From assembly GCA_004295885.1 (NCBI GenBank), contig SEDG01000001.1:7942-71941 (forward strand): a DNA stretch of 64,000 nucleotides, written 5' to 3'. This DNA comes from Pedobacter sp. GTDB taxonomy: Bacteria; Bacteroidota; Bacteroidia; Sphingobacteriales; Sphingobacteriaceae. Below, one piece after another: positions 1,711 to 61,054 of this stretch; position 1 is the stretch's first letter, and the number at the start of each line of letters is the position of its first letter. The translations under genes and the position numbers were made by a program. The notes under the pieces are model-generated. The model was not told the DNA's origin, searched no databases, and worked only from the letters and a program-made list of their open reading frames with translations.

Positions 1711-1764
1711 AACAGGTTCAGCAAAATACACTCATTTTTAAAACTCGACTCAAAATAAAGCATC

Positions 1765-29058: not shown

Positions 29059-30504
29059 TCATTGTTTTTTTGAAGCAATAGGAATCAACATTAGGGCTTC
29101 CCAGTTCTTCTGCATACCCTTATTTTTATTTAACTGGGCATTGATCTTTTTCTTGAATAGCCAGCAAGTGTTTTCCTTCACGGAGGTGCATATCGAGAGT
29201 TCCCTTGCGGTTATGCCTGGGTTGGACCTCAATAAGAAAAACATATAGAAAGCTTCTAGGATAGGAATTTTAATCCTATGGAATACAGTACCTGAAGTCG
29301 CCGTTTCCACATAGCCACATTTTGAGCATCTTCTCGCGTATTCAATTTTGCCAGCCCCGAACTTCTCTTGCCTGCATTTCTTACATCTATATCCATTCTC
29401 CCATTTCAACTGAGCCAAGTATTTGATGCAGGAAGCGTCATCGGGATATAATTCCTTAAATTCTTTGAAATCCAAGGGCTTTAGGTCTATCCTCGCATCT
29501 ATTTCATTTTTCAGCTGGCTCTTAAGATAATTATTGTCTGCATCTAACAGCTTGTTGATTCTTTCAATTTCTTCACTCTGTGCCCTAACCATCGTTACGT
29601 CACTACAGTTCATTACAATCCCATTTATGGCGGGATCGAAGCTCAAGTCTTTGATGAAGGACTCTAAAATAGCATATTGCCCATTTGACTTCTTTAACCT
29701 TAATTCAATCTTGGTGCCTTCAGATTTTGGGCCTACCGCCTTGTTAATGGTTTCGAAGTAATTGTCTTTGTCCTGGTCGTGGAGAATAGCTAGAATTGAG
29801 GTGCCAATGATGTCGTTCTCCGACAGCTCAAATAATCGATAGAAAGATGGGGTGATGTAACGAATGAGGTGATCTTTTCCAACAATGGCAATGATATCTG
29901 GAGAATGTCTAATTAACGACCTAAACCTCCGTTCACTTTCTATCAAAGCAAGTTCGGCCTGCTTTCTCTTGGTAATATCTATGCAACAGCCTAACAGGTA
30001 TTCCTGGCCGTCGCTCGTCTTGATCCTGGTCTTTTTGATCAACACATAGGAATCAGTGCCATTTCTAAGCGAGAATTCCTCCGAGAAAACTTCCTTGCCG
30101 GTTAGGAAAAGTGTTTCTTCTTCTTGCCAAAAGCGGTCTGCCTGGGCCTTTGGAAAAAAATCGTAATCGTTCTTGTTTTGGAGTTCGGCCCTTGTTTTGT
30201 GTTGGAGGTTACAAAGGGAGTCATTGAAGAAAACCCACCTATGTTGCCTGTCCTTAACAAATACAGGCATTGGGATTGCATTAAAAATCTGTTCCCAATG
30301 TTCTGCATCGATTTCTTCAATACTTCTTTCGCTAATGGGTTTACGGCCCATTTGGTTCACCGATTTCCCAACAAGTGCACTATCAACCGAAGCTAGTTTC
30401 TTTAGCCCGTATTGATTGACATGTCTAATCGTTAAATCTTCATTTAAGGTTAAGGCAATGGCAGAAACAATCTTGCTCAAATACTCTTCTTCTGGTAAAC
30501 TCAT
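29059..30504 (-). CDS. PAS-domain sensor fused to an IS1595-transposase-like Zn-ribbon/HTH C-terminus
   Basis: PAS repeats (PVFVKD...DITKRK; SERRFRSLI...SDVT), then F..LYPDD..C..YL..LKW.NGYRCKKC...RCSKC...TVFH..KIP. No DDE domain. Confidence 0.75.
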   Translation of the reverse strand: MSLPEEEYLSKIVSAIALTLNEDLTIRHVNQYGLKKLASVDSALVGKSVNQMGRKPISERSIEEIDAEHWEQIFNAIPMPVFVKDRQHRWVFFNDSLCNLQHKTRAELQNKNDYDFFPKAQADRFWQEEETLFLTGKEVFSEEFSLRNGTDSYVLIKKTRIKTSDGQEYLLGCCIDITKRKQAELALIESERRFRSLIRHSPDIIAIVGKDHLIRYITPSFYRLFELSENDIIGTSILAILHDQDKDNYFETINKAVGPKSEGTKIELRLKKSNGQYAILESFIKDLSFDPAINGIVMNCSDVTMVRAQSEEIERINKLLDADNNYLKSQLKNEIDARIDLKPLDFKEFKELYPDDASCIKYLAQLKWENGYRCKKCRQEKFGAGKIEYARRCSKCGYVETATSGTVFHRIKIPILEAFYMFFLLRSNPGITARELSICTSVKENTCWLFKKKINAQLNKNKGMQKNWEALMLIPIASKKQ

Positions 30505-30572
30505 CTAATAATCTATCGAAACACAAAGCTATGGAGAATGTAGTAACCAAAATTAACTAAAAAACCATTTAA

Positions 30573-31409
30573 TTAACTAGAATATCTTTTCTTTAACAGT
30601 GCTTTCATCCACAAGTTAACCTCCCATTGGCTGGCCACGGGTTTTCTGGTATAAGGTATGGTGGGCATATAATCTGCAGGGCCGAATTCTGGCGTGATGG
30701 TAAAGTCGGGCGTTTTTAGCTCAATTTGATTCGCGATTATTTTATCCCACCAGTTCAAATGATGGTTAACGGCGTCCCGCCACTCTGGTGCCCTGGGATC
30801 ATTTACCTGGCAAGCTTGTGGATGGCCTATTCTTGCATGCAGGTGTCCTGCCCTTTGTATGGCATTATCAAGATGTACGCCCTGGTCAGTTAGAAAAGAC
30901 TCGGAAACATTACACCAATGCGAAAAATCCGCCGTGATTCTTAGAGATGGAAACGCTTCCAGGTAAGGTTGTATGGCCGCCGCATGAAATGAGAACCTTC
31001 CCCGATGAGTTTCATGCAATATCCTCATGTCAAGCTCTTTGGCCAACTCTATGGATTCATGGATTAATGCGCAATTATCCTCAAATGATAAAAAGTCACT
31101 TCCGGTGTGTGAGTTGATGAGCAAGGGTTTAACATCTGCGGCAGATCTGATGTGCTCGCCGTAAGAGGTCATGAATTCAGCAAGTGTGTTGCCATGGGCG
31201 GCGTATTGCAAGGCAATTACCTCCATCTCATAGTCTGCCTTAAGCTTGTTGATTTCGTATTTCTGTTTGTCGTTCAATGGAATAGCCATCTCTACACCGT
31301 CGTAACCGGCATGTTTTATCTCTTCAAAAATAGCCTCCAAGGAACCTTCCAGCTGATGGACGTAATCGGGAACCATGCCCCAGATTGGGCAAAAGAAATT
31401 AATTTTCAT
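30573..31409 (-). CDS. Sugar phosphate isomerase/epimerase (xylose-isomerase-like TIM barrel)
   Basis: GYDGVE, HETHR, ADFSHW, HARIG and TPEFGP metal-binding motifs. Confidence 0.85.
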   Translation of the reverse strand: MKINFFCPIWGMVPDYVHQLEGSLEAIFEEIKHAGYDGVEMAIPLNDKQKYEINKLKADYEMEVIALQYAAHGNTLAEFMTSYGEHIRSAADVKPLLINSHTGSDFLSFEDNCALIHESIELAKELDMRILHETHRGRFSFHAAAIQPYLEAFPSLRITADFSHWCNVSESFLTDQGVHLDNAIQRAGHLHARIGHPQACQVNDPRAPEWRDAVNHHLNWWDKIIANQIELKTPDFTITPEFGPADYMPTIPYTRKPVASQWEVNLWMKALLKKRYSS

Positions 31410-31433: not shown

Positions 31434-32480
31434 TTATTGTCCGGTTGAATTTAGGTAACTGCCATAACCAATTACAAGTGTTGAAATGATGACGATGGCT
31501 ATCCCTGTAAATATGGTTTTCATGGTAGATGAGTTAGATCCTTTCCATTCCTTGAAATAAAGGCCCCAGAGGTTGCTAAATGTGATTACGAATGCCATAT
31601 GGATACTCCAGCTGGCGAAATCATAATCTCCCATCCTAGTAGAACCCATTCCGTAAAACATAAACTGCAGATACCATATTATGCCAGCCAGAGCAGAAAA
31701 AAAGTAATTGCTCTTCTGAAAACCGGTCTTTTTTGTGTAATCTCCAGCTGTACGGTTTCTTACGTTCAATACAATGCACCAAATGATGTTGGTTACAAAT
31801 CCCCCCATCAGTACCATGATTAAGACGGCGTTATTTTGCCACAATGGGGCAACACCTCGACTAATGGCAAGATCTGCCAGGGGTTTGCCAGCACTTAGGC
31901 CAAATGCAAAACAAGAGCTTAAAATACCTGAAAAGAGTGCGGTTAAGATGCCCTTACCGAAATTAAATTCCTTGATCGTTTCTTTCTTTTTCTCGATAGA
32001 TAATGATCGTTCCTTTAAAATTCCTGCCCATCCACAAACACCGATGCCCAAAAGGCAAATAAAAACGCCTGCCAAGGTAGTTAAGCCAGACACATTATTT
32101 AGAAGCTGTGAAAATGTCCCATAAAAAATTGGCGGTACCAGTGTGCCCAGTACTGCGCATAAGCCCAGGGTAATTGAGAAGCCTAAAGAGAAGCCCAGAT
32201 AGCGCATAGAAAGTCCGAAGGTCATACTGCCTAAGCCCCAGAGCGAACCGAAAATTAGGCACCATAACAATGTGCTTGAATCCACATCGCGGAATAGATC
32301 AAGGAGGTCGGGAATGGTAAGGTAGCCCGTTAACCATGGCATAACAATCCATGCAGCCACCCCACTAATTAGCCAAGAGCTTTCCCATGCCCAATCTTTA
32401 ACCCTTTTGAAGGGAATTAAAAAGCTGCCAGAGGCAAATCCGCCGATGGCATGCAGTAATAGGCCTAAGATAAAGTTCAT
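31434..32480 (-). CDS. rhaT: L-rhamnose/proton symporter
   Basis: GSFLIPFKRVKDWAWE, GLSMRYLG and QFMFYGMG...SWSIHM motifs; about 10 TM segments. Confidence 0.9.
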   Translation of the reverse strand: MNFILGLLLHAIGGFASGSFLIPFKRVKDWAWESSWLISGVAAWIVMPWLTGYLTIPDLLDLFRDVDSSTLLWCLIFGSLWGLGSMTFGLSMRYLGFSLGFSITLGLCAVLGTLVPPIFYGTFSQLLNNVSGLTTLAGVFICLLGIGVCGWAGILKERSLSIEKKKETIKEFNFGKGILTALFSGILSSCFAFGLSAGKPLADLAISRGVAPLWQNNAVLIMVLMGGFVTNIIWCIVLNVRNRTAGDYTKKTGFQKSNYFFSALAGIIWYLQFMFYGMGSTRMGDYDFASWSIHMAFVITFSNLWGLYFKEWKGSNSSTMKTIFTGIAIVIISTLVIGYGSYLNSTGQ

Positions 32481-32966: not shown

Positions 32967-33908
32967 ATGGCAATGAACGATGTGCAAGATGTTGCGCCTT
33001 TTAAAGAGTCAACTCATTTACTTAACGACCCTCGAGAACTAAGGGCAACTGCCGAACAAGACGGCTATCTTTTTTTTAAAGCTTTATTACCTGCTGAAGC
33101 AATAGCTCAGGTACGGAAAGATGTATTTGAAATCTGTAAAAAAAATGAATTCTTGAAAGATGGGACAACGTTAACAGATGGTATCGCAGCTCCCGGATTC
33201 ATGATCTTGGAATCATCTGTTAACCCCGCCTACTTAAATTACTACAGAGAAATTCAACAACTACATTCCTTTCATGCTTTAGCTCATGATCCTAATTTAT
33301 TAAAAGCATTGAACGTGCTTTTTGATGGGGAAACGCTGGTTCACCCTTTAAAAATCTTACGTACCATTTTTCCGCAGGCGCAAAAACATACAACACCACC
33401 TCACCAGGATTATTTCCACGTAAGGGGAACTGAAAATACTTGGACAAGTTGGATTCCACTTGGCGACTGCGATAAAGAATTAGGTGGCTTAACCTTGGTT
33501 CCCGGATCGCAAAATTGGGGGTTATTACCCGAACATCCTGCCGAGGGAGCGGGTTTAATTGGAATTAATGTGCCGAGCGATTCTAAATGGGTAATTGGAG
33601 AGTTTGCTGCGGGAGATGTGTTGATGTTCCATAGCCACACCGTTCACCAGGGAATCGACAACAACTCAGCTGACAGGATCAGGTTATCCATGGACTGTAG
33701 GTTCCAGGCCTTGAGTGAGAAAAAAATTGGCCCGGTAGCCGTTAGAAGCCCACACTTACACTGTATTGATTGGGACGGCTTATATAAAAAATGGCCGGCG
33801 AACGACCCTTTAAAATATTATTGGAAGGATCTGGGTCTAGAAATTGATCAATCCGCCCCGCCAACAATTGGCACACCCGAAAATCCACACCCCACAACAA
33901 TGGGTTAG
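32967..33908 (+). CDS. PhyH-family Fe(II)/2-oxoglutarate dioxygenase
   Basis: HQD...H facial triad (PPHQDY, FHSHTVH), WIPLGD, PGS and RLS motifs. Confidence 0.85.
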   Translation: MAMNDVQDVAPFKESTHLLNDPRELRATAEQDGYLFFKALLPAEAIAQVRKDVFEICKKNEFLKDGTTLTDGIAAPGFMILESSVNPAYLNYYREIQQLHSFHALAHDPNLLKALNVLFDGETLVHPLKILRTIFPQAQKHTTPPHQDYFHVRGTENTWTSWIPLGDCDKELGGLTLVPGSQNWGLLPEHPAEGAGLIGINVPSDSKWVIGEFAAGDVLMFHSHTVHQGIDNNSADRIRLSMDCRFQALSEKKIGPVAVRSPHLHCIDWDGLYKKWPANDPLKYYWKDLGLEIDQSAPPTIGTPENPHPTTMG

Positions 33909-34069
33909 TTCAGGAAGACGTGCGTGTGAAGTTGATTTGATTTTTTCTTCACCCCATTAGTATTTAATTCGATTGTAATTGCACGGGGACAAAGTTTTGG
34001 CACCGAAATATCATTAGCGCCATGAGGTACGATTAACCGAGTGGCTATACCAACCAAATTTAAAAAGGT

Positions 34070-35101
34070 ATGTTACAACAGCAAGGTTTTAATTTTCTAA
34101 AAATAGATACCTGTTCTGCTACCCCTAAATATTTACAGGTTAGAGATAGCATAGTTTCTGCGTTAGAGTGTGGTAAACTGAAAAAAGGTGATGTTTTACC
34201 ATCTATTAATGACTTAAGTTATATTCTCGATATCTCTAGGGATACGACTGAAAAGGGCTATAGGTATCTAAAAAATACTGGGTTTATCAATTCCATACCG
34301 GGTAAAGGTTACTACATTTCCAATTCAGAGTACAAAAAAGACATCAGGGTTTGCCTACTTTTTAACAAACTCTCGGCACATAAAAAGATAATATATGATG
34401 CTTTTTCAGATGCGCTTGGCGATCAAGCTTTTATAGATTTTTACATCTATAACAATGACTATGCAATCTTCAAAAAGCTCATTAAGAGCACTAAAAACGA
34501 TTATTCACATTATGTGATCATTCCTCACTTTGTGGATGGTGGGGAAGATGCCTTTGAAATCATAGATTCTATTCCGAAGGAAAAACTATTGATCCTAGAT
34601 AAGCAAGTTCAGGGCGTTAATGGTGATTATGCTTCGATTTATGAAAATTTCGCAACAGATATCTATCAGGCGTTAACCACTGTACTGCCAAATCTATCTA
34701 AATACAGGGCCATTAAGATTGTATTCCCTAAAAAAAGCTACTATCCCAAGGAGATACTGAAAGGCATAAAGCTATTCTGTAATCAACATAGCTTCAATTA
34801 TGTGGTTGTAGATAATATGGAGAAGGAAGTGATTAACAGGGGAGACCTTTACATCAATGTGATGGAAGATGACCTTGTTCAACTGTTAGAGAAAGTCATT
34901 AATTTAGGACTTGAAGTGGGCAAGGACGTCGGAATAATTTCCTATAATGAAACCCCATTAAAGAAATACATACTCAATGGGATCACTACTGTTTCCACAG
35001 ATTTCAAAATGATGGGCTATATGGCGGCGCAAGCTGTATTAAACAATAGTAAGGCGAAACACGCAGTTCCTTTCAACATTATTCTAAGAGATTCTTTATG
35101 A
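34070..35101 (+). CDS. GntR-family regulator with periplasmic-binding-protein-like effector domain
   Basis: PKYLQV...LPSIN...SRDTTEKGY..GKGYY wHTH; C-terminal GIISYNE..ITTVSTDF. Confidence 0.9.
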   Translation: MLQQQGFNFLKIDTCSATPKYLQVRDSIVSALECGKLKKGDVLPSINDLSYILDISRDTTEKGYRYLKNTGFINSIPGKGYYISNSEYKKDIRVCLLFNKLSAHKKIIYDAFSDALGDQAFIDFYIYNNDYAIFKKLIKSTKNDYSHYVIIPHFVDGGEDAFEIIDSIPKEKLLILDKQVQGVNGDYASIYENFATDIYQALTTVLPNLSKYRAIKIVFPKKSYYPKEILKGIKLFCNQHSFNYVVVDNMEKEVINRGDLYINVMEDDLVQLLEKVINLGLEVGKDVGIISYNETPLKKYILNGITTVSTDFKMMGYMAAQAVLNNSKAKHAVPFNIILRDSL

Positions 35102-38337: not shown

Positions 38338-41300
38338 ATGCCTAAAAAATCATCTATTCATTTTTCATTAATTGTACTACTCAACCTGTTAATGACAGCT
38401 TCAGGAACATCTGCTCAGACGAAACAGGCGAAATTAGTTTCACTGGATGCCTTCAGGAAAGGATTTGAGGTGCCGCAAGATTCCTTAAAACCATATGTAT
38501 ATTGGTATTGGGTAAGTGACAACATTTCAAAAACAGGAATTACCAAAGATTTGGAAGCTATGGCTAAAGTAGGCATAGGTGAGGCTTTTATAGGTAACAT
38601 TGGCCTATCGACTGTTCCTTACGGTAAGGTAAAGGTTTTGAGCAAAGAATGGTGGGAACTCACCAAATTCGCTATTACAGAAGGGCAACGCTTGGGGGTT
38701 GACATCGGCATTTTTAACAGTCCAGGCTGGAGCCAATCTGGAGGGCCATGGGTAAAGCCGACTGAAGCAATGCGTTATTTAGTGTCGACGGAGGTATCAA
38801 TTACCGGAGGCAAAAATGTAAAGATGAAACTACCTGCAGTTCAGGAAGGATTTCAAGATATGGCGGTAATCGCTTATCCTGTTTCTTCCCTTCCTGAGCA
38901 GACGGTTGCAGATTTCAAACCTAGCTTAAAGTTTTCCACTACAATTAATAATGGCAATTACTTAATCGATAAAAATTTAAACACAGCCATTGCCTTTACT
39001 CCAGAAGCGAAAAAAAATGGATTGACCATAGATTTTAACCTTGAGAAAAGTTTCACGGCAAGAAGCATCACCATTCATCCAGATACGGTACAATTGTCAG
39101 CGCAGGTAGAGGTTCAAGTACTTGTTAATGGCTCTTACAAGCCTATTAGGAAGTTTCTGATGGATAGGAGCAACAATATGATCACGGTAGGCCCTAATGT
39201 TTATGGAGAAATATGCATTGCTTTGCCAGTGACGACCGCTACAAGTTTTAGGTTGGTTTTTTCTGAGTTAAATAATCCACAGGGCCAACAAAAAGTAGGG
39301 GGCATTAAAGAAATCGTCTTGTCATCTTACCCAAAGCTAGAGCGATACATTGAAAAGCAAATGGGTAAAATGCTACAAGTGCCAACGCTTTCCTGGAATG
39401 AATATTTGTGGGAAAACCAGATGGAAAATGGTAGTGCAAATATGAAAGTAAGTGCCAGTAGTGTTATTAATATCACTAAATTTTTAGATAATAATGGTGT
39501 CCTTAACTGGAATGCCCCAAAGGGAAAGTGGATAGTTAGAAGAGTCGGACTTGTGCCGACAGGCACAAAAAATGCACCAGCTTCCCCAGAAGCCACAGGG
39601 TTTGAAGTAGATAAAATGAATCGGGTTTCCTTAGAAAAACACTTCAATGCTTACTTAGGTAAGTTTTTAAAAGAATTACCTGCCGATAAGAGAAAGTCAT
39701 TCAAACATGTAGTGTTAGATAGTTATGAGGTTGGCCCCGAGAACTGGACGGAAGGTTTGGCAGAAGGCTTTAGGAAGAAATACGGTTACGATCCGATCGT
39801 TTGGTTGCCAGTCTTGTCGGGAACGATTGTTAATAGCGCCCAGGAATCAGATCGCTTTCTTTGGGACCTGAGACGGTTGATTGCTGATCGCATAGCTTAC
39901 GACTATGCTGGTGGATTAAGGGATATCAGTAAGAAAAATGGATTAAAAGTATGGTCGGAGAACTATGGGCATTGGGGTTTCCCTTCAGAATTCTTGCTTT
40001 ATGGTGGACAAGGAGGTGAAATCGCTGGTGAATTTTGGGTAGAAGGTACCTTAGGAAACGTAGAGTGTAGAGCAGCTTCTTCTGCGGCACATATATATGG
40101 CAACAACCGTGTGTTTGCCGAGAGTTATACCGCAGGTGGTTTGCCGTATCAACGCTACCCAGGTTACTTGAAAAAACGAGGAGATTGGTCTTTTACGGAA
40201 GGGATTAATCATGTGCTTTTGCATGTATATATTCATCAGCCATATGAAGATAAGGATCCAGGTATGAACGCCTGGTTTGGGACAGAGTTCAATAGGAAAA
40301 ACACTTGGTTCGAGCAGTCTAAAACCTGGATAGATTACCAACGTCGAAGCATGTTTATGTTACAACAAGGAAAGCCGGTTAATGATATTTGCTATTTTAT
40401 TGGTGAGGATGCACCGAAGTTAGCTGGTGGTAGAGATCCCGAAATTCCAACAGGTTATTCTTATGATTATATCAACGCTGATGTGATCTTAAACAAAATG
40501 ACTGTAAAAGACGGTAAACTAACGCTGCCCGATGGGATGAGCTATAGGATGATGGTTATGCCTCCATTAACGACTATTACTCCTGAACTATTGCAAAAGA
40601 TAAAGGAGTTGGTTATTGCCGGAGGGATCATCTTAGGCCCCAAGCCTACGAAGTCGCCGAGTTTAAGAAATTATCCTAACGCTGATCAAAAAGTTAGAGC
40701 ATTAGCTGATGAGTTATGGGACGATGCTAATCGAAAAGATCAAACCACGAATGCATTGGGCAAAGGATTTGTTTTGAATGATATTAGCTTAACTAGGGCA
40801 CTAGTCCAATTTCAGATCCCCCAAGACATCGTGATCCCGAACGGAAAACCATTACTATTTACGCATAGAAAAACTGCTCAAGAGGAAATCTATTTCATTA
40901 CGAACCAGAGTGACGAAAGGCAGGAAGCAACTATTACATTTAGGGTAAAAGATAAGCATCCTGAGCTCTGGGATGCCACCACAGGTACAACTAGGAAATT
41001 GCCCCAGTTTTTTTCAACTTCAACTGGCACAGCGCTTTCGTTAAAGTTTGAACCTGCTGAGAGTTATTTTATCGTGTTCGTTGCAGATGACAGTAAAACT
41101 ACTACGACTGAAAATTTCCCTCAAGCGAATTCAGTACAGGAAATCACCAGCCCATGGAGGGTTAAATTTCAAGACAATAAGCGTGGCCCAACTGCCGAAG
41201 TTGAATTTACAACCTTGCAGGACTGGTCTCATCACTCAGATGAAAAAATTAAATACTTTTCAGGCACCGCTACTTATACCAACACTTTCATAGGGAAAGC

Positions 41301-41616
41301 TCCCATATCTGGCGAGCGTATTTTTTTAGACCTTGGAGATGTAAAAAATATGGCCACGGTTAAAATCAACGGTAAAACAGTGGGTGGATTATGGACAGCG
41401 CCTTGGCGTATTGATATTACGAAATTCGTAAGCAACGGCAATAATTCAGTTGAAATTGAAGTGGTAAACCTTTGGGTTAACAGAATGATTGGAGATAGCA
41501 AACTTTCAGAAAAAGACCGACCAACATGGTTAGCCAACAATTATTTCAATCCTACAGACCCTTTAACTCCATCGGGATTATTGGGTCCAGTGCACATCAA
41601 ATTAATCAAATATTAA
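38338..41616 (+). CDS. GH106 alpha-L-rhamnosidase
   Basis: PYVYWYW, GWSQSGGPWV, LDSYE, GEFW and AESYT motifs; C-terminal GLLGPV. Confidence 0.88.
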   Translation: MPKKSSIHFSLIVLLNLLMTASGTSAQTKQAKLVSLDAFRKGFEVPQDSLKPYVYWYWVSDNISKTGITKDLEAMAKVGIGEAFIGNIGLSTVPYGKVKVLSKEWWELTKFAITEGQRLGVDIGIFNSPGWSQSGGPWVKPTEAMRYLVSTEVSITGGKNVKMKLPAVQEGFQDMAVIAYPVSSLPEQTVADFKPSLKFSTTINNGNYLIDKNLNTAIAFTPEAKKNGLTIDFNLEKSFTARSITIHPDTVQLSAQVEVQVLVNGSYKPIRKFLMDRSNNMITVGPNVYGEICIALPVTTATSFRLVFSELNNPQGQQKVGGIKEIVLSSYPKLERYIEKQMGKMLQVPTLSWNEYLWENQMENGSANMKVSASSVINITKFLDNNGVLNWNAPKGKWIVRRVGLVPTGTKNAPASPEATGFEVDKMNRVSLEKHFNAYLGKFLKELPADKRKSFKHVVLDSYEVGPENWTEGLAEGFRKKYGYDPIVWLPVLSGTIVNSAQESDRFLWDLRRLIADRIAYDYAGGLRDISKKNGLKVWSENYGHWGFPSEFLLYGGQGGEIAGEFWVEGTLGNVECRAASSAAHIYGNNRVFAESYTAGGLPYQRYPGYLKKRGDWSFTEGINHVLLHVYIHQPYEDKDPGMNAWFGTEFNRKNTWFEQSKTWIDYQRRSMFMLQQGKPVNDICYFIGEDAPKLAGGRDPEIPTGYSYDYINADVILNKMTVKDGKLTLPDGMSYRMMVMPPLTTITPELLQKIKELVIAGGIILGPKPTKSPSLRNYPNADQKVRALADELWDDANRKDQTTNALGKGFVLNDISLTRALVQFQIPQDIVIPNGKPLLFTHRKTAQEEIYFITNQSDERQEATITFRVKDKHPELWDATTGTTRKLPQFFSTSTGTALSLKFEPAESYFIVFVADDSKTTTTENFPQANSVQEITSPWRVKFQDNKRGPTAEVEFTTLQDWSHHSDEKIKYFSGTATYTNTFIGKAPISGERIFLDLGDVKNMATVKINGKTVGGLWTAPWRIDITKFVSNGNNSVEIEVVNLWVNRMIGDSKLSEKDRPTWLANNYFNPTDPLTPSGLLGPVHIKLIKY

Positions 41617-41678
41617 CTAAACACTATAGCTTAAAGTAGCGATGTAGTAATCGAAATTTTAAGATAAAATAAACACTA

Positions 41679-44456
41679 ATGAAGAAATACCTATTGCTCC
41701 TTTTGTTTAGCAGCTTTTGCTCAATAGACTTGTTTGCACGGCAGGCTATGGTTACTGTGGGCCGTACTACAGTGGAAGGGCTAAATGTTATGGAGGGTGT
41801 AACGAAGATACACCCTCGCCTTAGTTGGCAAATTGAAAGCGCACAGCGAAACGTGAGCCAGACTGCGTATCAAATCATAGTGGCCAGTTCAATGGCCGCT
41901 ATTGGGCAGAACAAGGGTGATGTTTATGATAGCCGCAAAGTAAATTCTAATCAGTCCATCAATATTGCCTATCCTTTAGTGAACCTATTGAGCTGCAGAC
42001 CATATTATTGGAGGGTACGTGTTTGGACGAGCAAGGGAGCTTCAAAATGGAGCGCCACGGGCAAGTGGAGTATGGGCATACTGAATGATTCGATTTGGAA
42101 GGCAGACTGGATTGGTACAGAGAAAATGTTAAAAACAGATGATCCTTACAATCCATTTACCCGCCTTGCGGCACGATACCTGCGAAAAGAACTAACTGTT
42201 TCTGTCAAGCCAATTCGGGCAACGGCCTACATCGCCGGGATGGGCCTGTACGAATTGTATGTAAACGGTCTCAAGGTCGGAAAACATGTTTTATCACCTA
42301 CACTTAAAGAATATAATAAAGAAATTCCGTACAATACCTTGGATGTAACTGCTTATTTTAAGAAGGGCAGTAACGCCATTGGAGTGATTCTAGGAAACGG
42401 AAGGTACTTTACTGTTCGCTACAGCAAGGATGGGGGTATGGCAGCTGGCAATGCTCCGAGTACCCATTATGGTCTTCCGATGTTGAAAATGCAGGTCTTG
42501 CTGGAATATGCCAATGGAACCAAAGAGCTCATCACCTCTGATCGATCATGGAAGGCAACCTCAAACGGGCCAATCATCGCAAATAATGAGTTTGACGGAG
42601 AGGAATATGACGCGAACAAAGAATTAACTGGCTGGTCATTGCCAAACTATAAGGATAAAGATTGGTATAAGGTTTCTGTAGTAACGCCAGCATCAAATAA
42701 ATTGGTGACCCAGGTTAATGAAAATATTGCTGTAAAGGACAACATTGTTCCCAAAACAATTCACCAGACCAAAAATAGGAGCTATATTTTAGATATGGGA
42801 CAGAATATGGTAGGCTGGCTCAAAATTAAGGTGAGGGGAAAAAAGGGCGATACCATTACATTAAGATTTGCGGAAACATTGAAGAATGCCGATAGTCTGT
42901 TTTTGGCTAATATCAGAAGTGCCAAGGTAACCGATAAGTATGTGATAAAGGGTACAGGTGAGGAGCTATGGGAGCCACGTTTTGTTTTTCATGGCTTTAG
43001 GTATGCTGAAGTACGGGGATTGAAGTATCAGCCTAAAAAGGAAGATTTTACAGGCAGGGTAGTTTACGATGACTTGCCAACCATTGGCTTATTCCAAACC
43101 TCAGACAAAACCATAAACCAGGTCTATAAAAATGCATACTGGGGTATCATAGGAAACTATAGAGGAATGCCTACAGACTGTCCACAACGCGATGAGCGAA
43201 TGGGGTGGCTTGGTGATCGTTCGGTAAGTTCCTATGGCGAAAGCTTTGTTTTCGATAACTCTAGGTTATATGCAAAATGGATGGATGATATCGAGGCTGC
43301 CCAAAAGGAAAGTGGAAGTATTCCAGACGTTGCGCCAACCTATTGGAAAAACTATACGGATAATGTGACCTGGCCAATTACATTTTTAGTTATACCAGAA
43401 ATGTTAAGAAAGCAGTTTGGAGATACGGTAACTTATCAAAAGCAATATCCCAATATGAAAAAATGGATGCTTTACATGTGGGATACTTACCAAGTAGATG
43501 ATATGGTTCAAAAGGATACATACGGCGACTGGTGTTTGCCACCTGAAAACTTGAATATCATTTTTTCACTTGATACCAATCGGAATACAAAAGGACCTGT
43601 AATTGGTGCCGCCTATTACTATTATGCACTGAGCTTAATGAAAAAATATGCGGATCGTTTAAAGAATTCAGCCGACTATGCGCTGTTTGATGGAATGGCC
43701 AAAAAGGTAAGGGCGGCCTTTAATGCCGAGTTTTATAATCAAGATGGAGGTTTTTACGCGAATAATACGGTTACCTCAAATCTCTTGCCGCTTACATTCG
43801 GGATCGTTGAGGAGAAAAATCGGGAGAAGGTATTTCGTCAAATAGTAGATCGTACATTGAATCTATATCAAGGGCATGTAAGTACTGGGCTAATTGGCGG
43901 GCAATGGTTAATGAGAGGCTTATCAGATAACGGCAGACCCGATTTAGCTTACAAAATAGTTACCAATACAACTTACCCAAGTTGGGGCTACATGGCGGCA
44001 CAAGGAGCCACTACGATTTGGGAACTGTGGAACGGTAATACCGCCGATCCTGCTATGAATTCTGGTAACCACGTTATGCTATTGGGCGATTTGCTGGTGT
44101 GGAACTATGAATATTTGGGAGGCATCAAGACAGATCAACAAGACGTTGCCTTCAAGAAGATCATAATGGACCCTTACTTGGCGCCAGCGCTCACTTTTGT
44201 CAATGCAAGTACCACATCACCTTATGGAAAAATAGTTTCTAACTGGAAGAAGAATGGTAAAAACTTTAGCTGGGAAGTGAGTATCCCATCGAATTGCAAA
44301 GCTATCCTGGCTTTTCCAGTAAGTTCCTTTAGTGCAATTTTAGAGAACAATAGAAAGCTTAGTGGGATAAATGAAATCAAGTATTTACGTACTGAGAACG
44401 GCAAAACTTATGTTGAGGTGGCTTCTGGAAATTATGTCTTTAGCTGTAAATTCTGA
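41679..44456 (+). CDS. GH78 alpha-L-rhamnosidase
   Basis: LDMGQNMVG, PTDCPQRDERMGWLGD, GATTIWELWN and SGNHVM motifs. Confidence 0.93.
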   Translation: MKKYLLLLLFSSFCSIDLFARQAMVTVGRTTVEGLNVMEGVTKIHPRLSWQIESAQRNVSQTAYQIIVASSMAAIGQNKGDVYDSRKVNSNQSINIAYPLVNLLSCRPYYWRVRVWTSKGASKWSATGKWSMGILNDSIWKADWIGTEKMLKTDDPYNPFTRLAARYLRKELTVSVKPIRATAYIAGMGLYELYVNGLKVGKHVLSPTLKEYNKEIPYNTLDVTAYFKKGSNAIGVILGNGRYFTVRYSKDGGMAAGNAPSTHYGLPMLKMQVLLEYANGTKELITSDRSWKATSNGPIIANNEFDGEEYDANKELTGWSLPNYKDKDWYKVSVVTPASNKLVTQVNENIAVKDNIVPKTIHQTKNRSYILDMGQNMVGWLKIKVRGKKGDTITLRFAETLKNADSLFLANIRSAKVTDKYVIKGTGEELWEPRFVFHGFRYAEVRGLKYQPKKEDFTGRVVYDDLPTIGLFQTSDKTINQVYKNAYWGIIGNYRGMPTDCPQRDERMGWLGDRSVSSYGESFVFDNSRLYAKWMDDIEAAQKESGSIPDVAPTYWKNYTDNVTWPITFLVIPEMLRKQFGDTVTYQKQYPNMKKWMLYMWDTYQVDDMVQKDTYGDWCLPPENLNIIFSLDTNRNTKGPVIGAAYYYYALSLMKKYADRLKNSADYALFDGMAKKVRAAFNAEFYNQDGGFYANNTVTSNLLPLTFGIVEEKNREKVFRQIVDRTLNLYQGHVSTGLIGGQWLMRGLSDNGRPDLAYKIVTNTTYPSWGYMAAQGATTIWELWNGNTADPAMNSGNHVMLLGDLLVWNYEYLGGIKTDQQDVAFKKIIMDPYLAPALTFVNASTTSPYGKIVSNWKKNGKNFSWEVSIPSNCKAILAFPVSSFSAILENNRKLSGINEIKYLRTENGKTYVEVASGNYVFSCKF

Positions 44457-47850: not shown

Positions 47851-48681
47851 TTAAAATTTGAGCTTAGAAAATTTAAATTTGCCTGTAGTTGTAGCTGTTT
47901 GGCCTGGTTTAAGTTCCTTGGCTACAAGGGGAGCAGAATGTATGCATCCGTGATCATGTTCCCAGTTGTTGAAGAAAAATGCGGGCTGACCATCAACAGT
48001 TGTCTCAATCTTCCAACTACTGTCTTTCGATTCCAGCCAAACGCTCTTTCCGCTTAGCATTGTGTTGGCATTTACGTTCCAATTTACAATCCACGGGCTT
48101 TCAGCTAAATTAATCCCTCCAATAACAGGATAAAACTGCATTGTTCTCCTTCCATTTCCCGCCGTTTTCTCAACGGAAGCCAGAGATATGGTTTGGTCAA
48201 ATTCATTTTTTGCCCAAGTGCGTTCCATACTAATATCCTTAAACAAAGGAGCCCTGTCCATGGTAAGGCAATTAAAGGCAGCCAAATCAAATAATGGAGT
48301 TTTACTTTTATTAGTAAATTTTATTTTCCATGTCAACCAATATTCTCTAGCATGCTCGGTTAAATCTAAATCAACACTATAGCCATATTTAGAATTTTTA
48401 ACCTTTCTGCTTCCATGATTTCCCTTGATTGTCCAAGGCTTCAGGTCAGCATTAAACAAACCCTTCTCTAGGTTTTTACCTGTAAATATTTCAGGTACAG
48501 TAAACAGGAAATATTGCCCGGGCAATTCTTTAAGTACGATAAAAATAGAGATGTTACTTTCGTCAGCGGGTTTGAAAGCAATTAATGGTTCAATTTTTTG
48601 CTGCGAAAATGCGCTTGTCCATAGTATAAATGTTGCAAATATGCAAAGCAGTTTTCTTGTTGATATTTTCTTATAAGCCAT
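47851..48681 (-). CDS. Secreted hypothetical protein, paralog 1 of an unknown 'FNC/APLFKD/HGCxH' family
   Basis: Signal peptide; blocks shared with 58517..59344 and 59357..60187. Confidence 0.8.
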   Translation of the reverse strand: MAYKKISTRKLLCIFATFILWTSAFSQQKIEPLIAFKPADESNISIFIVLKELPGQYFLFTVPEIFTGKNLEKGLFNADLKPWTIKGNHGSRKVKNSKYGYSVDLDLTEHAREYWLTWKIKFTNKSKTPLFDLAAFNCLTMDRAPLFKDISMERTWAKNEFDQTISLASVEKTAGNGRRTMQFYPVIGGINLAESPWIVNWNVNANTMLSGKSVWLESKDSSWKIETTVDGQPAFFFNNWEHDHGCIHSAPLVAKELKPGQTATTTGKFKFSKLKF

Positions 48682-48733
48682 GTTAAATCTAATTTCCTAT
48701 AAAGTTATATCTCATATAATTGTTGGCATACTG

Positions 48734-48748
48734 TCCTGTACAGGATGC
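48734..48748. promoter_or_regulatory. Palindromic operator candidate TCCTGTACAGGA(TGC) between divergent genes
   Basis: Perfect 12-bp palindrome 48734-48745 overlapping the TACAGGATGC motif, in a 120-nt divergent spacer. Confidence 0.55.
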
Positions 48749-48801
48749 GAACATTTTAAATTTAATTATTATTGTTAGTGATATTTTAAAAAAATGTTTA
48801 T

Positions 48802-50496
48802 ATGAGACGATACTACTCTATCCTGTTGTTAGTTGCCATGGTAAATGGGCTTAACTCAAGAGCTCAATCTAGCAATGGCTTCAAATCGGTTGTAGCGATC
48901 AGGATTTTTACTGAAGATAACAAGAAAATTACACCAGCTATGGTGTGCATTACGAACGGTAAACAGAATCAACCTGTTTTACCACCATCGGGCGAAAACA
49001 TTGGAAAGCCTTCCGACAATGATGTGTTCTTTAAAGGCGTTTCTTTTGACAAGAATAAAAACTGGGTTGGGCCAATTCGCATGACTGCAGGAGTGGGTGA
49101 CAATAAAGATAGGAGCGTACTTTATGGGGTACAGCCATCTATTCCCTACTGGAAAGCTCCAGTGATGTATCAGACCTCTGGTGATTTTACCATTGAGTTA
49201 CCTGTGGGTACTTGGAAAATCAGCATACAGAGGGGGAACGAATATATTCCCATTGAGCAGGAATTTACAGTAAAAGCAAATGACATCAAGCTAGTTAAGT
49301 CATTTACTTTGAAACGCTGGATTGATCTGCCAGAAATAGGTTGGTATTCTGGTGATGTGCACGTCCATCATCCTACAAATAAGCCAGGATTTCGAGAGTA
49401 TCTATTATCCTATGCAAAAGCCGAAGACCTTCATCTGGTTAACATACTGGAAATGGGACACCACGAGACCGGGGTAGATGCTATGGGGCATGAGCACACG
49501 GGAACTGACTTTAAGCAAGCTGGATTTGGCGAAAAATTTAGAGTAAACGATGGGAACTATTGGTTAGTTTCGGGTCAGGAGGATCCTAGGAGCAGGTTCG
49601 GACATATCATTGGATTAAATATAGATCAGATAGTAAGGGATACCACTGTTTATGATTACTATGACCTTGTTTTTAAAAACCTGAAAATGCAACCTGGAGC
49701 AGTAGTGGGCTTTGCACATTTTGCTTGGAATGTCTCTTGGAATGTTCAGAACAAGACAACTGGTTTCCCATGGTTCATTACATCCAATCAAATAGATTTC
49801 GTGGAGTTACTCCAGTTCCTGAAATTAAATACGTTAGACTATTATGAATACCTCAATCTAGGATTTCGCATTACTGCTGCAGCTGGGAGCGATTTCCCAT
49901 GGGCAAGCACGATTGGCGAAGTGCGTACAATGGTTTATACCGGAAAAAAATTCACTCCAGATGCTTGGTTTCAGGGCCTTAAGGCGGGAAACACCTTTGT
50001 TACCAACGGCCCTGCATTATTCTTAACTGCAGATGGAGAAATGCCTGGTAGTGAGATTAAAAAAGCCAAGGGGTCCACTTTAAAGCTTTCGTTAAAAGGA
50101 TTGTCAAATCCAAAGATTGGTACCATCAGGAGAATAGCCATCTATTCTAACGAAGGGTTAATTGCAGAGCTTAACAACAAGGAAATAAGGGACTCCATTG
50201 AGTTGAAATTTTCGCATTCAATTAAACGCAGTCAGTGGATTGCCGCCGTGGTGAATTGCGACAACGGTGCAGTGGCGCACACCAGTCCGGTTTATGTGGT
50301 TGTGGATGGCAAGCCTACCTATGATTTAAAGAGGGCGCCAGAAATAATAGCTAGGCAGGTTGCAAGTATTGAAGAGCTATTGCGTGAGGAAAAGTCAAAG
50401 AAAGTACTGGACCAGGGAATTATCGAAAGATTAGAGACTTCGATTTCGTTTTACAGGATGCTTTTACAGCAAATAAAAAAAGAAAGTGAGTCATAA
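48802..50496 (+). CDS. CehA/McbA-family (PHP-like) metallohydrolase
   Basis: GWYSGDVHVHH, GQE..FGH, FAH, AGSD, FVTNGP and AHTSP motifs; signal peptide. Confidence 0.8.
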   Translation: MRRYYSILLLVAMVNGLNSRAQSSNGFKSVVAIRIFTEDNKKITPAMVCITNGKQNQPVLPPSGENIGKPSDNDVFFKGVSFDKNKNWVGPIRMTAGVGDNKDRSVLYGVQPSIPYWKAPVMYQTSGDFTIELPVGTWKISIQRGNEYIPIEQEFTVKANDIKLVKSFTLKRWIDLPEIGWYSGDVHVHHPTNKPGFREYLLSYAKAEDLHLVNILEMGHHETGVDAMGHEHTGTDFKQAGFGEKFRVNDGNYWLVSGQEDPRSRFGHIIGLNIDQIVRDTTVYDYYDLVFKNLKMQPGAVVGFAHFAWNVSWNVQNKTTGFPWFITSNQIDFVELLQFLKLNTLDYYEYLNLGFRITAAAGSDFPWASTIGEVRTMVYTGKKFTPDAWFQGLKAGNTFVTNGPALFLTADGEMPGSEIKKAKGSTLKLSLKGLSNPKIGTIRRIAIYSNEGLIAELNNKEIRDSIELKFSHSIKRSQWIAAVVNCDNGAVAHTSPVYVVVDGKPTYDLKRAPEIIARQVASIEELLREEKSKKVLDQGIIERLETSISFYRMLLQQIKKESES

Positions 50497-50499
50497 CGG

Positions 50500-50509
50500 A
50501 GCAGGATGC
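50500..50509 (+). promoter_or_regulatory. CAGGATGC motif upstream of susC, candidate GntR operator
   Basis: AGCAGGATGC 62 nt before ATG 50562; TAATTTAG -7-like element at 50528-50535; extra copy at 50452. Confidence 0.4.
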
Positions 50510-50561
50510 CACAACTTAAGGATGACTTAATTTAGATACCATATTACCAAAACCAAATATC

Positions 50562-53500
50562 ATGAACAAAATTTACTACTTATTAAATGGGCACTTGAAG
50601 CTATTGGTTTTCATGTGTCTGTTGTCCACGATCAATGTTGCCGTTTATGCGCAGCAGAAAACGATCAGTGGGGTCGTGATAGACTCCGCTGACACCAAGC
50701 CCCTAGTTGGGGTATCCATTACCATTCAGGGAACAAAAAACGTGATACAGACTGATGGGAATGGAAAGTTTAAGTTAAATGCTGCCTCAAGCGATAACTT
50801 AGTATTTCAATATCTTGGATTCGTGACTAAGGTTATCAATGTTGGTAACCAGAGCGATTTAAGGATTGTCTTAAGTTCTGCTAGCCAGAAGTTAGGTGAG
50901 GTGGTCGTGGTTGCCTTTGGAACACAGAAAAAAGTGAGTGTCACAGGGGCCATTAATTCCATTCAAACCAAGGAAATAAAGCAAAGTCCTGCCGCAAATT
51001 TAGCTGTGACCCTTGCTGGACGATTACCCGGTTTGACATCTATACAGAAAAGTGGGGAGCCTGGAAGGGATTTAACCAATCTGTACATCAGGGGCCAGGG
51101 TACAGTTAATGCGCAGAGTCCAGTCGTGTTGGTGGATGGGATAGAACGTGACCTAACTTATATCGACCCAAATGAGGTTGAATCCGTAACGATATTGAAA
51201 GATGCATCCTCGACGGCCATATTTGGTGTGAGAGGTGCTAATGGTGTGATTTTGGTTACTACAAAAAGAGGTACGTCTGAGAAGCCTTCCATTAACTTTA
51301 CAACCGAAACCGGACTTCAGGATTTCACAAGAAAACTGCAGCCAGTTAATTCATATGAATTTGCCACCTTACGAAACCTTGCCCAGCAGAATGATGGGCT
51401 AGGCCCGGCATTTTCCCCAGCAGCCTTAGAGCACTATAGAACGGGAGATGATCCAGTAAGATACCCGAATACCAATTGGCGAGAATTGTTGATGAAAGAC
51501 TATTCATCGCAATCACGCTATAACCTGAACGTATCTGGGGCAAGTAAGTCCATGAAGTACTTTATCAATGCAGGTTACCTTAGTCAGGGTGGACAGTTCA
51601 ATACGGAAAAAGGTCTTAACTATGACCCGAGTTTTGCATTGGATCGCTATAACTTCAGATCCAATATTGATGTACAGCTAAATAGCAGCCTTAAGGCATT
51701 CTTAAATGTTGCGGGATATTTAGAGAAACAAAATATGCCCGGTGGCGTATTGAGGACATTTGGAGATAGGAATTCGCAACTGGCTGGAGAGTCAACGGCA
51801 GATTTTATCTTCACTTTCATGAACGATATGAATAGTACTGATCCAGGGCCCTTGACCCCTGATGGTCAAGTAATCACAAATCCTATTGTACCACATCCGG
51901 CTTATGGGCAAATTAACAGGGCTGGTTATACGCAACAGACCAGAAATAACATCTTGGCTTCCTATGGGATGGAGCAAACCTTGGATTTCATAGCCAAAGG
52001 GTTGTCTGCCAAGGTAATTGTATCTTTTGATGCCAGGTCGACCAATAACCTCTTTGCCACAAAAAGTTATCAGAAATTTGTACAGGTGATAGATCCAAAT
52101 ACCGCCGAGGTATCTTACAGGAAGTTTAATGCCGATGAAAATACACCCTTGGATATATCAGGCTCTGCTTTTTTTACCACGCTAAGCAATATTCAGGGTT
52201 ACTTGAATTATAATAGGTTGTTTGGCAAGCACGCCGTTTCAGGCTTATTGCTATATCAACAACAAAAAAATATCGTGGACTCTCAGCTTCCATTTAATCT
52301 AAGGGGCGCTGCAACCCGTTTAACGTATTCCTATGACTCAAGATACCTCTTTGAGTTTAACGCTGGTTATAATGGTTCCGAGCAATTTGTTAAGGGTAAG
52401 AGGTTTGGGTTTTTTCCAGCGTTATCAGCAGGCTGGGTGATTTCCAATGAATCATTCTTAAAGGACAACAAGGTATTAAGCTTACTTAAGCTTCGCGGAT
52501 CATATGGAGAGGTAGGTAATGACAGGATTGGTGGAAGCCGCTTTTTGTACCTCGACGATATTATCGTGGCACCGGGTGGCGGTTATTCCAATAGTCTAGG
52601 TTTCGGAAATACGATCGTAACCAACAGGCTTCGAAATGAGAACCTGACATGGGAAGTCGCAAGGAAGGCGAATGTTGGCCTAGAGATTGGCCTTTTTAAT
52701 GCCCTTAACTTAACGGTTGACGTATTCACGGAGAAAAGGGACAATATTTTACGAAGAAGAGGAACCATTCCAACATTAAACGGATTGCCCATTAGTGCAC
52801 TGCCTCCCGTGAACATAGGCGTGGTTCAAAACCGAGGTTTTGAGGCAGAAGTTAACTATAAGAAGGTGTTTAACAAGGACTTTTCTATCCTGACAAGGGC
52901 TAATCTTTCGTTTGCCAGAAACAAGCAATTATTTGCTGATGAACCGCTGCTACCTGCAAGTTTTGCATATCGATACAGGCAAACTGGCTATAGGATCGGA
53001 CAACCGTTCGGCTATATTGTAGATAGGTATTTCACAAGCGTACAAGATATTGCAAATTCTCCGGTTCAAAGTGTTGGCGGGCACGAGTCCCGTCCAGGGG
53101 ATTTAAAGTTCAAGGATCTTAATAATGATGGGGTAATAGATGATAAGGATCATGGGCCGATTGGCTACTCGAACGTGCCGGAATATCAGTTTGGAGGTGC
53201 AATTAGCATAAATTACAAGAACTTTGATTTGAGTGCCCTTGTTCAAGGGGTGAGCAACATATATAATCTCTATGCAGGGGCTGGAACCTTTGAAGGTACA
53301 AACTACTATAGCCAGCATTTGGAAAGCTGGACAGCCGAAAGGTTCGCAAGCGGAGCTCCCATCAATTATCCAAGATTGACTACCCAAACGTCTCCTAACC
53401 AAAATTACAACTCTTTCTTTGTTATTGATGCCAGTTATGTGCGATTGAAGAATGTCGAGTTAGGCTACACCCTACCGACAAAATGGGCAGGCAAGGTGGG

Positions 53501-53660: not shown

Positions 53661-53672
53661 ATTTAGTCAATT

Positions 53673-61008: not shown

Positions 61009-61054
61009 TTTGATCACTAACGGTGTATTTTATCAGTTTTTTAATTATCGAAGC

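Follow-up and report, generated by a model that had tools for sequence, protein, structure and literature searches.

A PAS-PAS protein of Pedobacter sp. with an IS1595 transposase-like zinc ribbon/helix-turn-helix module as a likely one-component regulator of a rhamnoside utilisation locus

The 64,000-nucleotide stretch of Pedobacter sp. DNA analysed here (the window; contig SEDG01000001.1, positions 7,942 to 71,941 of the forward strand) carries a gene for a 481-aa protein, P0001. In this protein, two PAS domains are followed by a long helix and a C-terminal module of zinc ribbon and helix-turn-helix (HTH) that resembles the N-terminal head of IS1595-family transposases. We consider it likely that P0001 is a ligand-responsive, dimeric one-component transcription factor of the rhamnoside utilisation locus in which its gene lies, with the transposase-derived module as its DNA-binding part. 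As a soluble cytoplasmic regulator, it would bind an intracellular signal through its tandem PAS domains, probably a product or by-product of rhamnoside uptake or breakdown. A parallel dimeric coiled-coil helix would relay the change and reposition the two basic zinc ribbon/HTH heads, which would bind DNA and control the genes for rhamnose-glycan utilisation without a phosphorelay. The module probably descends from the DNA-binding head of an IS1595-family transposase; it would have been recruited once in Bacteroidia as an output for 7TMR-DISM and Reg_prop/Y_Y_Y sensors, and the PAS form would have arisen once by sensor exchange. Beyond that, we lean towards a wider reading, in which the IS1595-derived zinc ribbon/HTH constitutes an undescribed class of bacterial DNA-binding domain, domesticated once in Bacteroidia and shuffled among extracellular (7TMR-DISM, beta-propeller) and intracellular (PAS) sensors, with the PAS form as a cytoplasmic arm through which the polysaccharide utilisation locus (PUL) would be informed of the state of rhamnoside catabolism inside the cell.

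Domain architecture

The list of open reading frames (ORFs) and its translation give an ORF of 481 codons (Table 1). Scans with Pfam and NCBIfam place two PAS domains at residues about 68–182 and 192–283+ with E values of 5e-20 to 5e-9; the scores are 72 bits for PAS_4, 62 for PAS, 60 for PAS_9 and 94.5 for TIGR00229. A first-pass annotation, made from the sequence alone, had counted two or three PAS repeats. Two complete PAS domains are present, while the third does not hold up: residues 1–66 are degenerate and half-PAS-like, and an alignment of 25 homologues confines this extension to the closest sub-clade of the PAS-type proteins. The same scans detect no kinase, HisKA, HATPase, receiver, cyclase or DDE domain in the 481-aa protein. 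Sensor and output are joined in one polypeptide that contains PAS and zinc ribbon/HTH domains only, as in one-component regulators, and the histidine kinase and receiver domains of two-component or hybrid two-component systems are absent. The PAS-type protein has no membrane segment and ends 9 residues past the module. With a pI of 9.5, the module is strongly basic, versus a pI of 5.7 for the PAS part.

The full-length AlphaFold model, built from the 25-homologue alignment (predicted local distance difference test, pLDDT, 80.6), shows PAS1 at residues 67–176, PAS2 at 204–302, a single long helix at 304–338 and a compact C-terminal domain at 346–472. Tandem-PAS structures match the PAS part with E values of 1e-13 to 1e-15. 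They comprise FixL, DosP, MmoS and LOV-HK modules, and the resemblance is generic. The helix at 304–338 fits the coiled-coil linker that had been proposed. Its heptad a/d positions I313, N317, L320, N324, L327, L331 and E334 are invariant in the 25 PAS-type homologues, follow a 3-4 spacing and include two Asn at 'a' positions. Such spacing with Asn at 'a' is typical for parallel dimeric signalling coiled coils. The linker helix is probably such a coiled coil, and the protein would dimerise through it.

Relation of the output module to IS1595 transposases

PF12760 (Zn_ribbon_IS1595) matches residues 354–398 with 24.7 bits in the whole protein, just below the cut-off of 25.4, and rises above it to 27.5 bits when the C-terminal 142 aa are scanned alone. 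In BLASTP, these 142 aa align with the N-terminus of protein P0049 at 44% identity (E 4e-37) along 129 aa that include zinc ribbon and HTH alike. P0049 is a true transposase of 323 aa with PF12760 and the DDE domain PF12762. The earlier claim that the C-terminus carries the N-terminal pattern of IS1595 transposases is confirmed by both comparisons, with the IS1595-type profile and with true transposases of the family. As far as can be read from sequence, the C-terminus is a transposase head. The motifs quoted for it are present as CKKC...CSKC, TVFHRIKIP and GITARELS, while a fourth one, given as T.W...KI, had been miscounted by one position and actually reads TCWLFKKKI.

The cysteines C374, C377, C393 and C396 do not vary in the 25 homologues of the PAS type or in a mixed set of 90 sensors and transposases. 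They form the CxxC...CxxC pattern and are the predicted zinc ligands. In the third HTH helix, T446-C447-x-x-F450-K451 is conserved. Two further cysteines beyond the four ligands are kept in both sensors and transposases: C359 is invariant and C447 is found in at least 90% of the sequences. These residues may form a second metal site or have a redox function.

The AF2 model of the module (C-terminal 142 aa, 90-sequence alignment, pLDDT 91.4) has two helices, the zinc-ribbon strands, a three-helix bundle and a short C-terminal helix, in this order. With weak Z scores of 3.3–4.3, the three-helix part matches homeodomains, winged HTH regulators and transposase DNA-binding domains (TnsB, Tc3, SETMAR). 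DNA-binding HTH, homeodomain and transposase DNA-binding domains are the sole fold matches of the module, all of them weak, and Pfam HTH_24 is matched by one family member. The structure searches show no close solved relative of the module, which is not the same as a new fold. Based on the homology to transposase heads, the basic HTH and these weak fold matches, we propose that the module binds DNA.

Among 401 sampled Bacteroidota genomes, the module matches multi-copy transposases of about 310–320 aa at 37–45% identity, with ten transposase copies in genome G331 and three near-identical ones in G107. The elements of G107 (L092, L101, L104) are three copies of a unit of about 1 kb that are 99.7–99.8% identical and carry inverted repeats of roughly 23 bp (about ACGCATTAKCCCTTTARTTCCCT). 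With this unit and its inverted repeats, the G107 transposase genes are real insertion sequences (IS). The elements of G331 (L083, L100, L103) belong to at least ten diverged copies with about 80% DNA identity. The IS1595-family elements of about 1 kb in G107 and G331, both other Bacteroidia, look active.

A maintained gene

A word-indexed search yields about 37 full-length homologue clusters of 431–495 aa with 43–64% identity, and 5 close homologues, an uninformative result, when residues 305–481 are used as query. In a scan of species-representative genomes, we find an orthologue with 95% identity in Pedobacter jamesrossensis, which puts the window in Pedobacter, and six more distant orthologues in assemblies of Sphingobacteriales, Roseivirgaceae, Chitinophagales and Chitinophagaceae. 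In the first-pass annotation, a fusion confined to this genome with IS remnants beside it was named as a sign of accident; the fusion occurs in other genomes as well, and no adjacent remnants were found. The dN/dS ratio (non-synonymous to synonymous substitutions) relative to P. jamesrossensis, obtained from 20 synonymous and 9 non-synonymous differences, is 0.088 for the whole gene, 0.089 for the module and 0.04 for PAS1, the most constrained part of the sensor. The gene and its module are under purifying selection; for the module, this is the outcome of the check that had been suggested alongside the original proposal.

The DDE domain PF12762 was detected neither in the protein nor elsewhere in the source genome assembly, which is 82% complete. 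We find no meaningful inverted repeats around the gene, and the 134-bp gap to the convergent downstream gene leaves no room for a DDE remnant there. The reported lack of a DDE domain, a kinase and obvious terminal inverted repeats therefore stands. The features that define an IS1595 insertion sequence, a DDE domain and terminal inverted repeats together with multiple copies, are missing here: the source genome contains one full copy of the gene and one differently fused copy. From these comparisons, the fusion reads as a maintained gene, not as an accident.

The module as a general output domain

When the 142-aa module was used as query in an exhaustive phmmer search, 4872 cluster representatives matched at E <= 1e-3, of which 847 reach E <= 1e-10. 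Among the best 150 representatives of 50%-identity clusters, the module is C-terminal in 136, and 3 of the best 150 are clearly transposase-like. About 96 of the 136 have 578–676 aa, the size of 7TMR-DISM proteins, and 15 have 978–1097 aa, the size of Reg_prop/Y_Y_Y proteins. By Pfam, the 600-aa class consists of 7TMR-DISMED2 and 7TMR-DISM_7TM and the 1000-aa class of Reg_prop beta-propellers and Y_Y_Y, and in both classes the module is the sole cytoplasmic domain. A scan of 90 module-bearing proteins gave 46 with 7TMR-DISM, 12 with Y_Y_Y, 3 with a DDE domain and 72 with a PF12760 match; kinase, receiver and cyclase domains were found in none of the 90. The alignment consensus shows that the helix ahead of the module is conserved across the PAS, 7TMR-DISM and Reg_prop architectures. 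Many 7TMR-DISM and Reg_prop/Y_Y_Y sensors have the module as their single output, the behaviour expected of an output domain. The earlier proposal of a one-component regulator built from a transposase DNA-binding module thus gains support from comparative evidence, and DNA binding and transcriptional control are its predicted functions. The second module-bearing gene of the source genome (L002, C537:3645-5609; ORF 1444-1965, minus strand) has the same linker and runs into the end of its contig; it clusters with the 7TMR-DISM class, and a divergent gene for a SusC-like TonB-dependent receptor is 257 bp away.

We calculated a maximum-likelihood tree of 111 module sequences (34 PAS, 35 7TMR, 15 Reg_prop, 12 transposase, 15 short), which retains one-third of the 7TMR rows and includes no C-terminal fragment. 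The sensor-borne modules form one clade (SH-aLRT 96), and every DDE-bearing protein falls outside it. When the root is placed on the most distant transposases, the sensor clade sits above a grade of transposases. The 7TMR and Reg_prop rows are interleaved, with at least 4 changes each across well-supported branches, which indicates that sensors have been swapped repeatedly. The PAS rows form a single nested clade (96) that is sister to a 7TMR-DISM protein (97). Module matches occur in 18 of the 401 sampled Bacteroidota genomes, all of the same class as the source genome, and 9 of these 18, the source genome included, have sensor-fused copies. Consistent with the tree, a transposase head would have been recruited a single time and passed around among membrane sensors before PAS-PAS took their place on one later occasion. 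The direction from transposase to host is suggested by the chosen root and by the far wider spread of IS1595 elements. This family is found across bacteria and archaea and has eukaryotic relatives (PMC8101967). Its members outside the IS1016 group bear a zinc finger at the N-terminus, ahead of the DDE domain, as far as the account of Siguier et al. 2009 in PMC8101967 goes.

Conserved linkage to the rhamnoside locus

The gene is the last of a co-oriented trio with the genes for a RhaT-family symporter and a TIM-barrel protein, and a 68-bp gap separates it from the latter. Its position downstream of, and co-oriented with, rhaT and an isomerase gene had been recognised in the first-pass annotation. 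The position is correct, but the supposed isomerase is merely a member of the xylose-isomerase-like TIM-barrel family. Divergent genes of the locus are listed in Table 1; a GLAA-B/beta-helix protein gene and a gene similar to glycoside hydrolase (GH) family 129 also belong to this group.

We compared the neighbourhoods by reciprocal comparison of all ORFs between the window and the orthologous loci L004–L009. In L009, SusC, PhyH (70–71%), RhaT (74%), TIM-barrel (61%) and PAS genes are arranged in the order of the window. A RhaT orthologue (48%) adjoins the PAS gene in L004, PhyH (71%) and GH78 genes do so in L005, and a divergent SusC/D pair and GH78 in L006. L007 contains GntR (52%), GH106 (66%, directly downstream), the 276-aa gene (66%), a TIM-barrel paralogue and GH78, and L008 contains SusC (69%), SusD (76%), the 564-aa gene (73%) and the 276-aa gene (60%). 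Six other genomes thus have the PAS gene beside orthologues of SusC/D, GH106, GH78, RhaT and other genes of the locus. In L006 and L008, SusC/D are divergent from the PAS gene, which is the usual layout of a regulator and its target. The persistence of this linkage through so much rearrangement, in three orders, strongly supports a function of the protein together with the rhamnoside utilisation locus. Linkage of the PAS gene to the downstream convergent ECF-sigma/FecR/SusC/SusD cluster is not conserved.

The 564-aa (48802-50496) and 276-aa (47851-48681) genes of the window have no Pfam match. With 73% and 60% identity to their respective counterparts next to the PAS gene in L008, they appear to be conserved unannotated members of the locus. 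The two genes for regulators of the GntR/periplasmic-binding-protein (PBP) type are each preceded by a PhyH-like or a 271-aa gene, and in L007 the PAS gene is accompanied by orthologues of both pairs. Together with P0001, they bring the number of cytoplasmic regulators in the locus to three.

Table 1. Positions of the PAS-PAS gene, its parts and neighbouring genes in the window
Feature	Position	Strand	Evidence
Whole gene, PAS-PAS-coiled coil-zinc ribbon/HTH protein P0001, 481 aa	29059..30504	-	ORF list, homologue clusters, dN/dS
Residues 1-66, half-PAS-like N-terminal extension, poorly modelled	30307..30504	-	Alignment, pLDDT 44-70
PAS domain 1, residues 67-177	29974..30306	-	Pfam PAS_4/PAS/PAS_9, many invariant residues, model, dN/dS
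PAS domain 2, residues about 199-303	29596..29910	-	Pfam PAS_3/PAS_8, model, tandem-PAS fold matches
Long linker helix, residues 304-338	29491..29595	-	Model, invariant columns
Output module, predicted to derive from IS1595 transposase, residues 346-472	29089..29469	-	AF2 model, 44% transposase identity, pI, dN/dS
Zinc ribbon, residues 354-398	29311..29445	-	PF12760, invariant Cys
Tri-helical HTH-like part, residues 415-460, basic	29125..29262	-	Model, weak fold matches
Xylose-isomerase-like TIM-barrel gene, directly upstream, co-oriented	30573..31409	-	Pfam AP_endonuc_2
RhaT-family rhamnose/proton symporter gene, first of co-oriented trio	31434..32480	-	Pfam RhaT, E 6e-75
Divergent PhyH-family dioxygenase and GntR/PBP-type regulator genes	32967..35101	+	Pfam
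GH106 and GH78 alpha-L-rhamnosidase genes	38338..44456	+	Pfam
276-aa gene (-), 564-aa gene, SusC-like and SusD-like genes (+)	47851..55463	.	Pfam, orthologues in L008

Operator and promoter searches

A comparison of k-mers with at most one mismatch in the intergenic DNA of the window locus and of L005–L008 yielded AT-rich words that barely exceed shuffled sequence. Several candidate operators were considered and rejected. Tandem 20-bp units at window positions 30551–30590, each with TAGTTAATT on the minus strand, overlap the stop codon of the TIM-barrel gene. These two copies, 20 bp apart, lie immediately upstream of the PAS gene, and TAGTTAATT is not enriched elsewhere in the window. In three Chitinophagales loci (L006:5747-5964, L007:5640-5886, L008:5680-5898), the upstream blocks GCAATCGTT-GTACAAATTAAAA..., TTAGCGAT and ATCGCTT(T)AG are conserved and stay with the orthologue of the PAS gene whichever gene is divergent. 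They may represent its own promoter or an autoregulatory site. As operators for the window, neither box qualifies: ATCGCTT(T)AG is absent from the intergenic DNA of the window and not enriched in the window, and the GTACAAATTAAAA block shows no enrichment there either. The inverted repeat of the G107 insertion sequences (about ACGCATTAKCCCTTTARTTCCCT) loosely resembles the Chitinophagales ATCGCTT(T)AG box. No sequence similar to ACGCATTAKCCCTTTARTTCCCT occurs in the promoters of the window, which leaves the idea of an operator resembling an IS end without support here. Scans for sigma-70 promoters and terminators gave results at chance level. A Bacteroidetes-type TAnnTTTG box is found 27 nt ahead of the ATG in the window and is not conserved in the 95%-identical orthologue.

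Alternative readings

Several results weigh against P0001 as a DNA-binding regulator of the rhamnoside locus and against the history proposed for its module. No operator motif emerged that the window and the orthologous loci have in common. Two genes for GntR/PBP-type regulators (window 32967-35101 and 60193-62071) are already part of the locus, so that P0001 is not necessarily its principal switch. Orthologues of the PAS type are few and scattered, occurring in 7 of about 185,000 species representatives. A cofactor motif could not be assigned to the PAS domains, whose generic fold matches include both haem and flavin sensors. No solved structure extends over the whole module, with no sequence match and a best Foldseek E of at least 0.6, and the fold matches of the HTH part are weak (VIA Z 3.3-4.3). 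Our literature search returned no paper showing DNA binding by the module in any sensor protein. The root of the module tree was chosen, not inferred.

A DNA-binding one-component regulator might have its targets outside the rhamnoside locus, as an autoregulator or with a dispersed regulon, and its linkage would then reflect nothing more than co-inheritance. The missing common operator motif, the two GntR-type regulators and the upstream blocks that stay with the PAS gene itself in three Chitinophagales loci would suit such a protein. We still consider this unlikely, given that the gene set stays linked in spite of extensive reshuffling in three orders, which is difficult to account for unless the genes are tied in function, and that the divergent SusC/D genes of L006 and L008 have the classic layout of regulator targets. 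It is distinctly improbable that the zinc ribbon/HTH has lost DNA binding and serves as a protein- or RNA-binding adaptor, for example by sequestering another regulator on a PAS signal. The weakness of the matches to DNA-binding HTH folds and the extra conserved cysteines C359 and C447, to which no role is assigned, could be read in this way. Against it stand the strongly basic character of the module and its 44% identity to active-looking multi-copy transposases, which spans the full module with its HTH helices; in hundreds of membrane sensors, moreover, it is the sole cytoplasmic domain, so that the output has to come from the module itself.

Repression of an element by a truncated head of its own transposase is known from IS1 InsA. 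With this precedent, P0001 could be an InsA-like truncated transposase that controls IS1595 transposition, or else a passenger or decayed part of a mobile element. We give this very little credence: no IS1595 DDE domain is detectable in the source genome (82% complete assembly), the gene has neither flanking inverted repeats nor a DDE remnant, its place in a chromosomal locus for sugar utilisation is stable from order to order, its dN/dS is 0.09, and the inverted-repeat sequence of the related IS is absent from the intergenic DNA of the window. The history of the module could also run the other way, from a zinc ribbon/HTH that was originally a host regulator domain to its capture by IS1595 transposases. 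Topology alone leaves the direction undecided, since a root on the branch between sensors and transposases makes both groups monophyletic, and only 12 transposase rows were sampled. Yet most transposases of the IS1595 group have the N-terminal zinc finger, and the family spans bacteria, archaea and eukaryotic relatives (PMC8101967), whereas within the 401 sampled Bacteroidota genomes the sensor-borne copies were confined to the class of the source genome; if distant transposases serve as outgroup, the sensor clade renders the transposases paraphyletic. A reverse history is improbable on these grounds.

Comparison with known systems

PUL regulation in Bacteroidota has so far been ascribed mainly to hybrid two-component systems (HTCS), SusR-like proteins and pairs of ECF sigma and anti-sigma factors, and a direct one-component type of PUL regulator, BguR, was reported only in 2026. 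To these, the present family adds an output domain of different origin, a transposase head that serves hundreds of membrane sensors and, in P0001, a soluble PAS sensor. A full-text literature search found no paper that describes PF12760 as signalling output on PAS, 7TMR-DISM or Reg_prop sensors, and a census of gut-microbiota sensors makes no mention of a PF12760 output. In databases, these proteins are named 'PAS domain S-box-containing protein', 'sensor histidine kinase LadS', 'signal transduction protein' or 'transposase'. P0001 adds a new, soluble form, tied to a rhamnoside utilisation locus, to an apparently undescribed family of putative one-component regulators whose output stems from a transposase. 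If the module does bind DNA, it would represent a new family of DNA-binding domains for annotation. The family would be a clear bacterial case of transposase domestication into signalling and a counterpart of the eukaryotic route to transcription factors through host-transposase fusion. P0001 itself would offer a soluble, tractable member without membrane domains for work on module structure and operators.

Among the systems closest to P0001 are the 7TMR-DISM and Reg_prop/Y_Y_Y sensors, an uncharacterised family of Bacteroidia, which share its linker helix and output module (40–53% identity), have no other output domain and are often encoded beside SusC-like genes, as in L002. Unlike P0001, they span the membrane and sense outside the cytoplasm, whereas the PAS form is cytoplasmic and makes up a rare single sub-clade. 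BguR of Formosa agariphila, among characterised proteins the nearest in function, is a one-component activator of the Reg_prop type that spans the membrane and controls the laminarin PUL without a phosphorelay (preprint 10.64898/2026.01.10.698779). Like P0001, it is a PUL-linked protein of Bacteroidota in which a helical linker joins the sensor directly to a DNA-binding domain. The direct fusion of its HTH to a Reg_prop sensor is a functional precedent that we count in favour of P0001 being a regulator. In contrast to the soluble PAS-PAS protein, BguR senses with a double beta-propeller in the periplasm, crosses the membrane with one helix and uses a GerE-type HTH (PF00196) that is unrelated to the DNA-binding domain of putative transposase origin.

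The HTCS of Bacteroides carry HisKA, HATPase, receiver and an AraC-type HTH. As dedicated sensors and regulators encoded within or beside PULs they are similar to P0001, which has none of these four domains. PpsR/CrtJ, with PDB 4hh2 among the fold matches, is likewise soluble and unites PAS domains in tandem, helical linkers and an HTH at the C-terminus in a single chain; its HTH is of the Fis type and lacks a zinc ribbon, and the output domains are unrelated in sequence.

With IS1595 transposase heads, the module of P0001 has in common the CxxC-x15-CxxC zinc ribbon, the flanking helices, the three-helix HTH and the shared conserved residues. It differs from these transposases in its position, C-terminal behind a sensor and not N-terminal, and in the absence of a DDE domain, inverted repeats and multi-copy behaviour, and the sensor-borne copies form a clade of their own. 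Eukaryotic transcription factors that arose as host-transposase fusions are known from Cosby et al., as far as their work is covered in PMC8101967. In these fusions and in InsA of IS1, a transposase DNA-binding head is reused as a regulator without the catalytic domain, as we propose for P0001. The eukaryotic proteins are exon-capture fusions and InsA is a repressor encoded by the element, whereas here the head would be a modular bacterial output distributed among three types of sensor.

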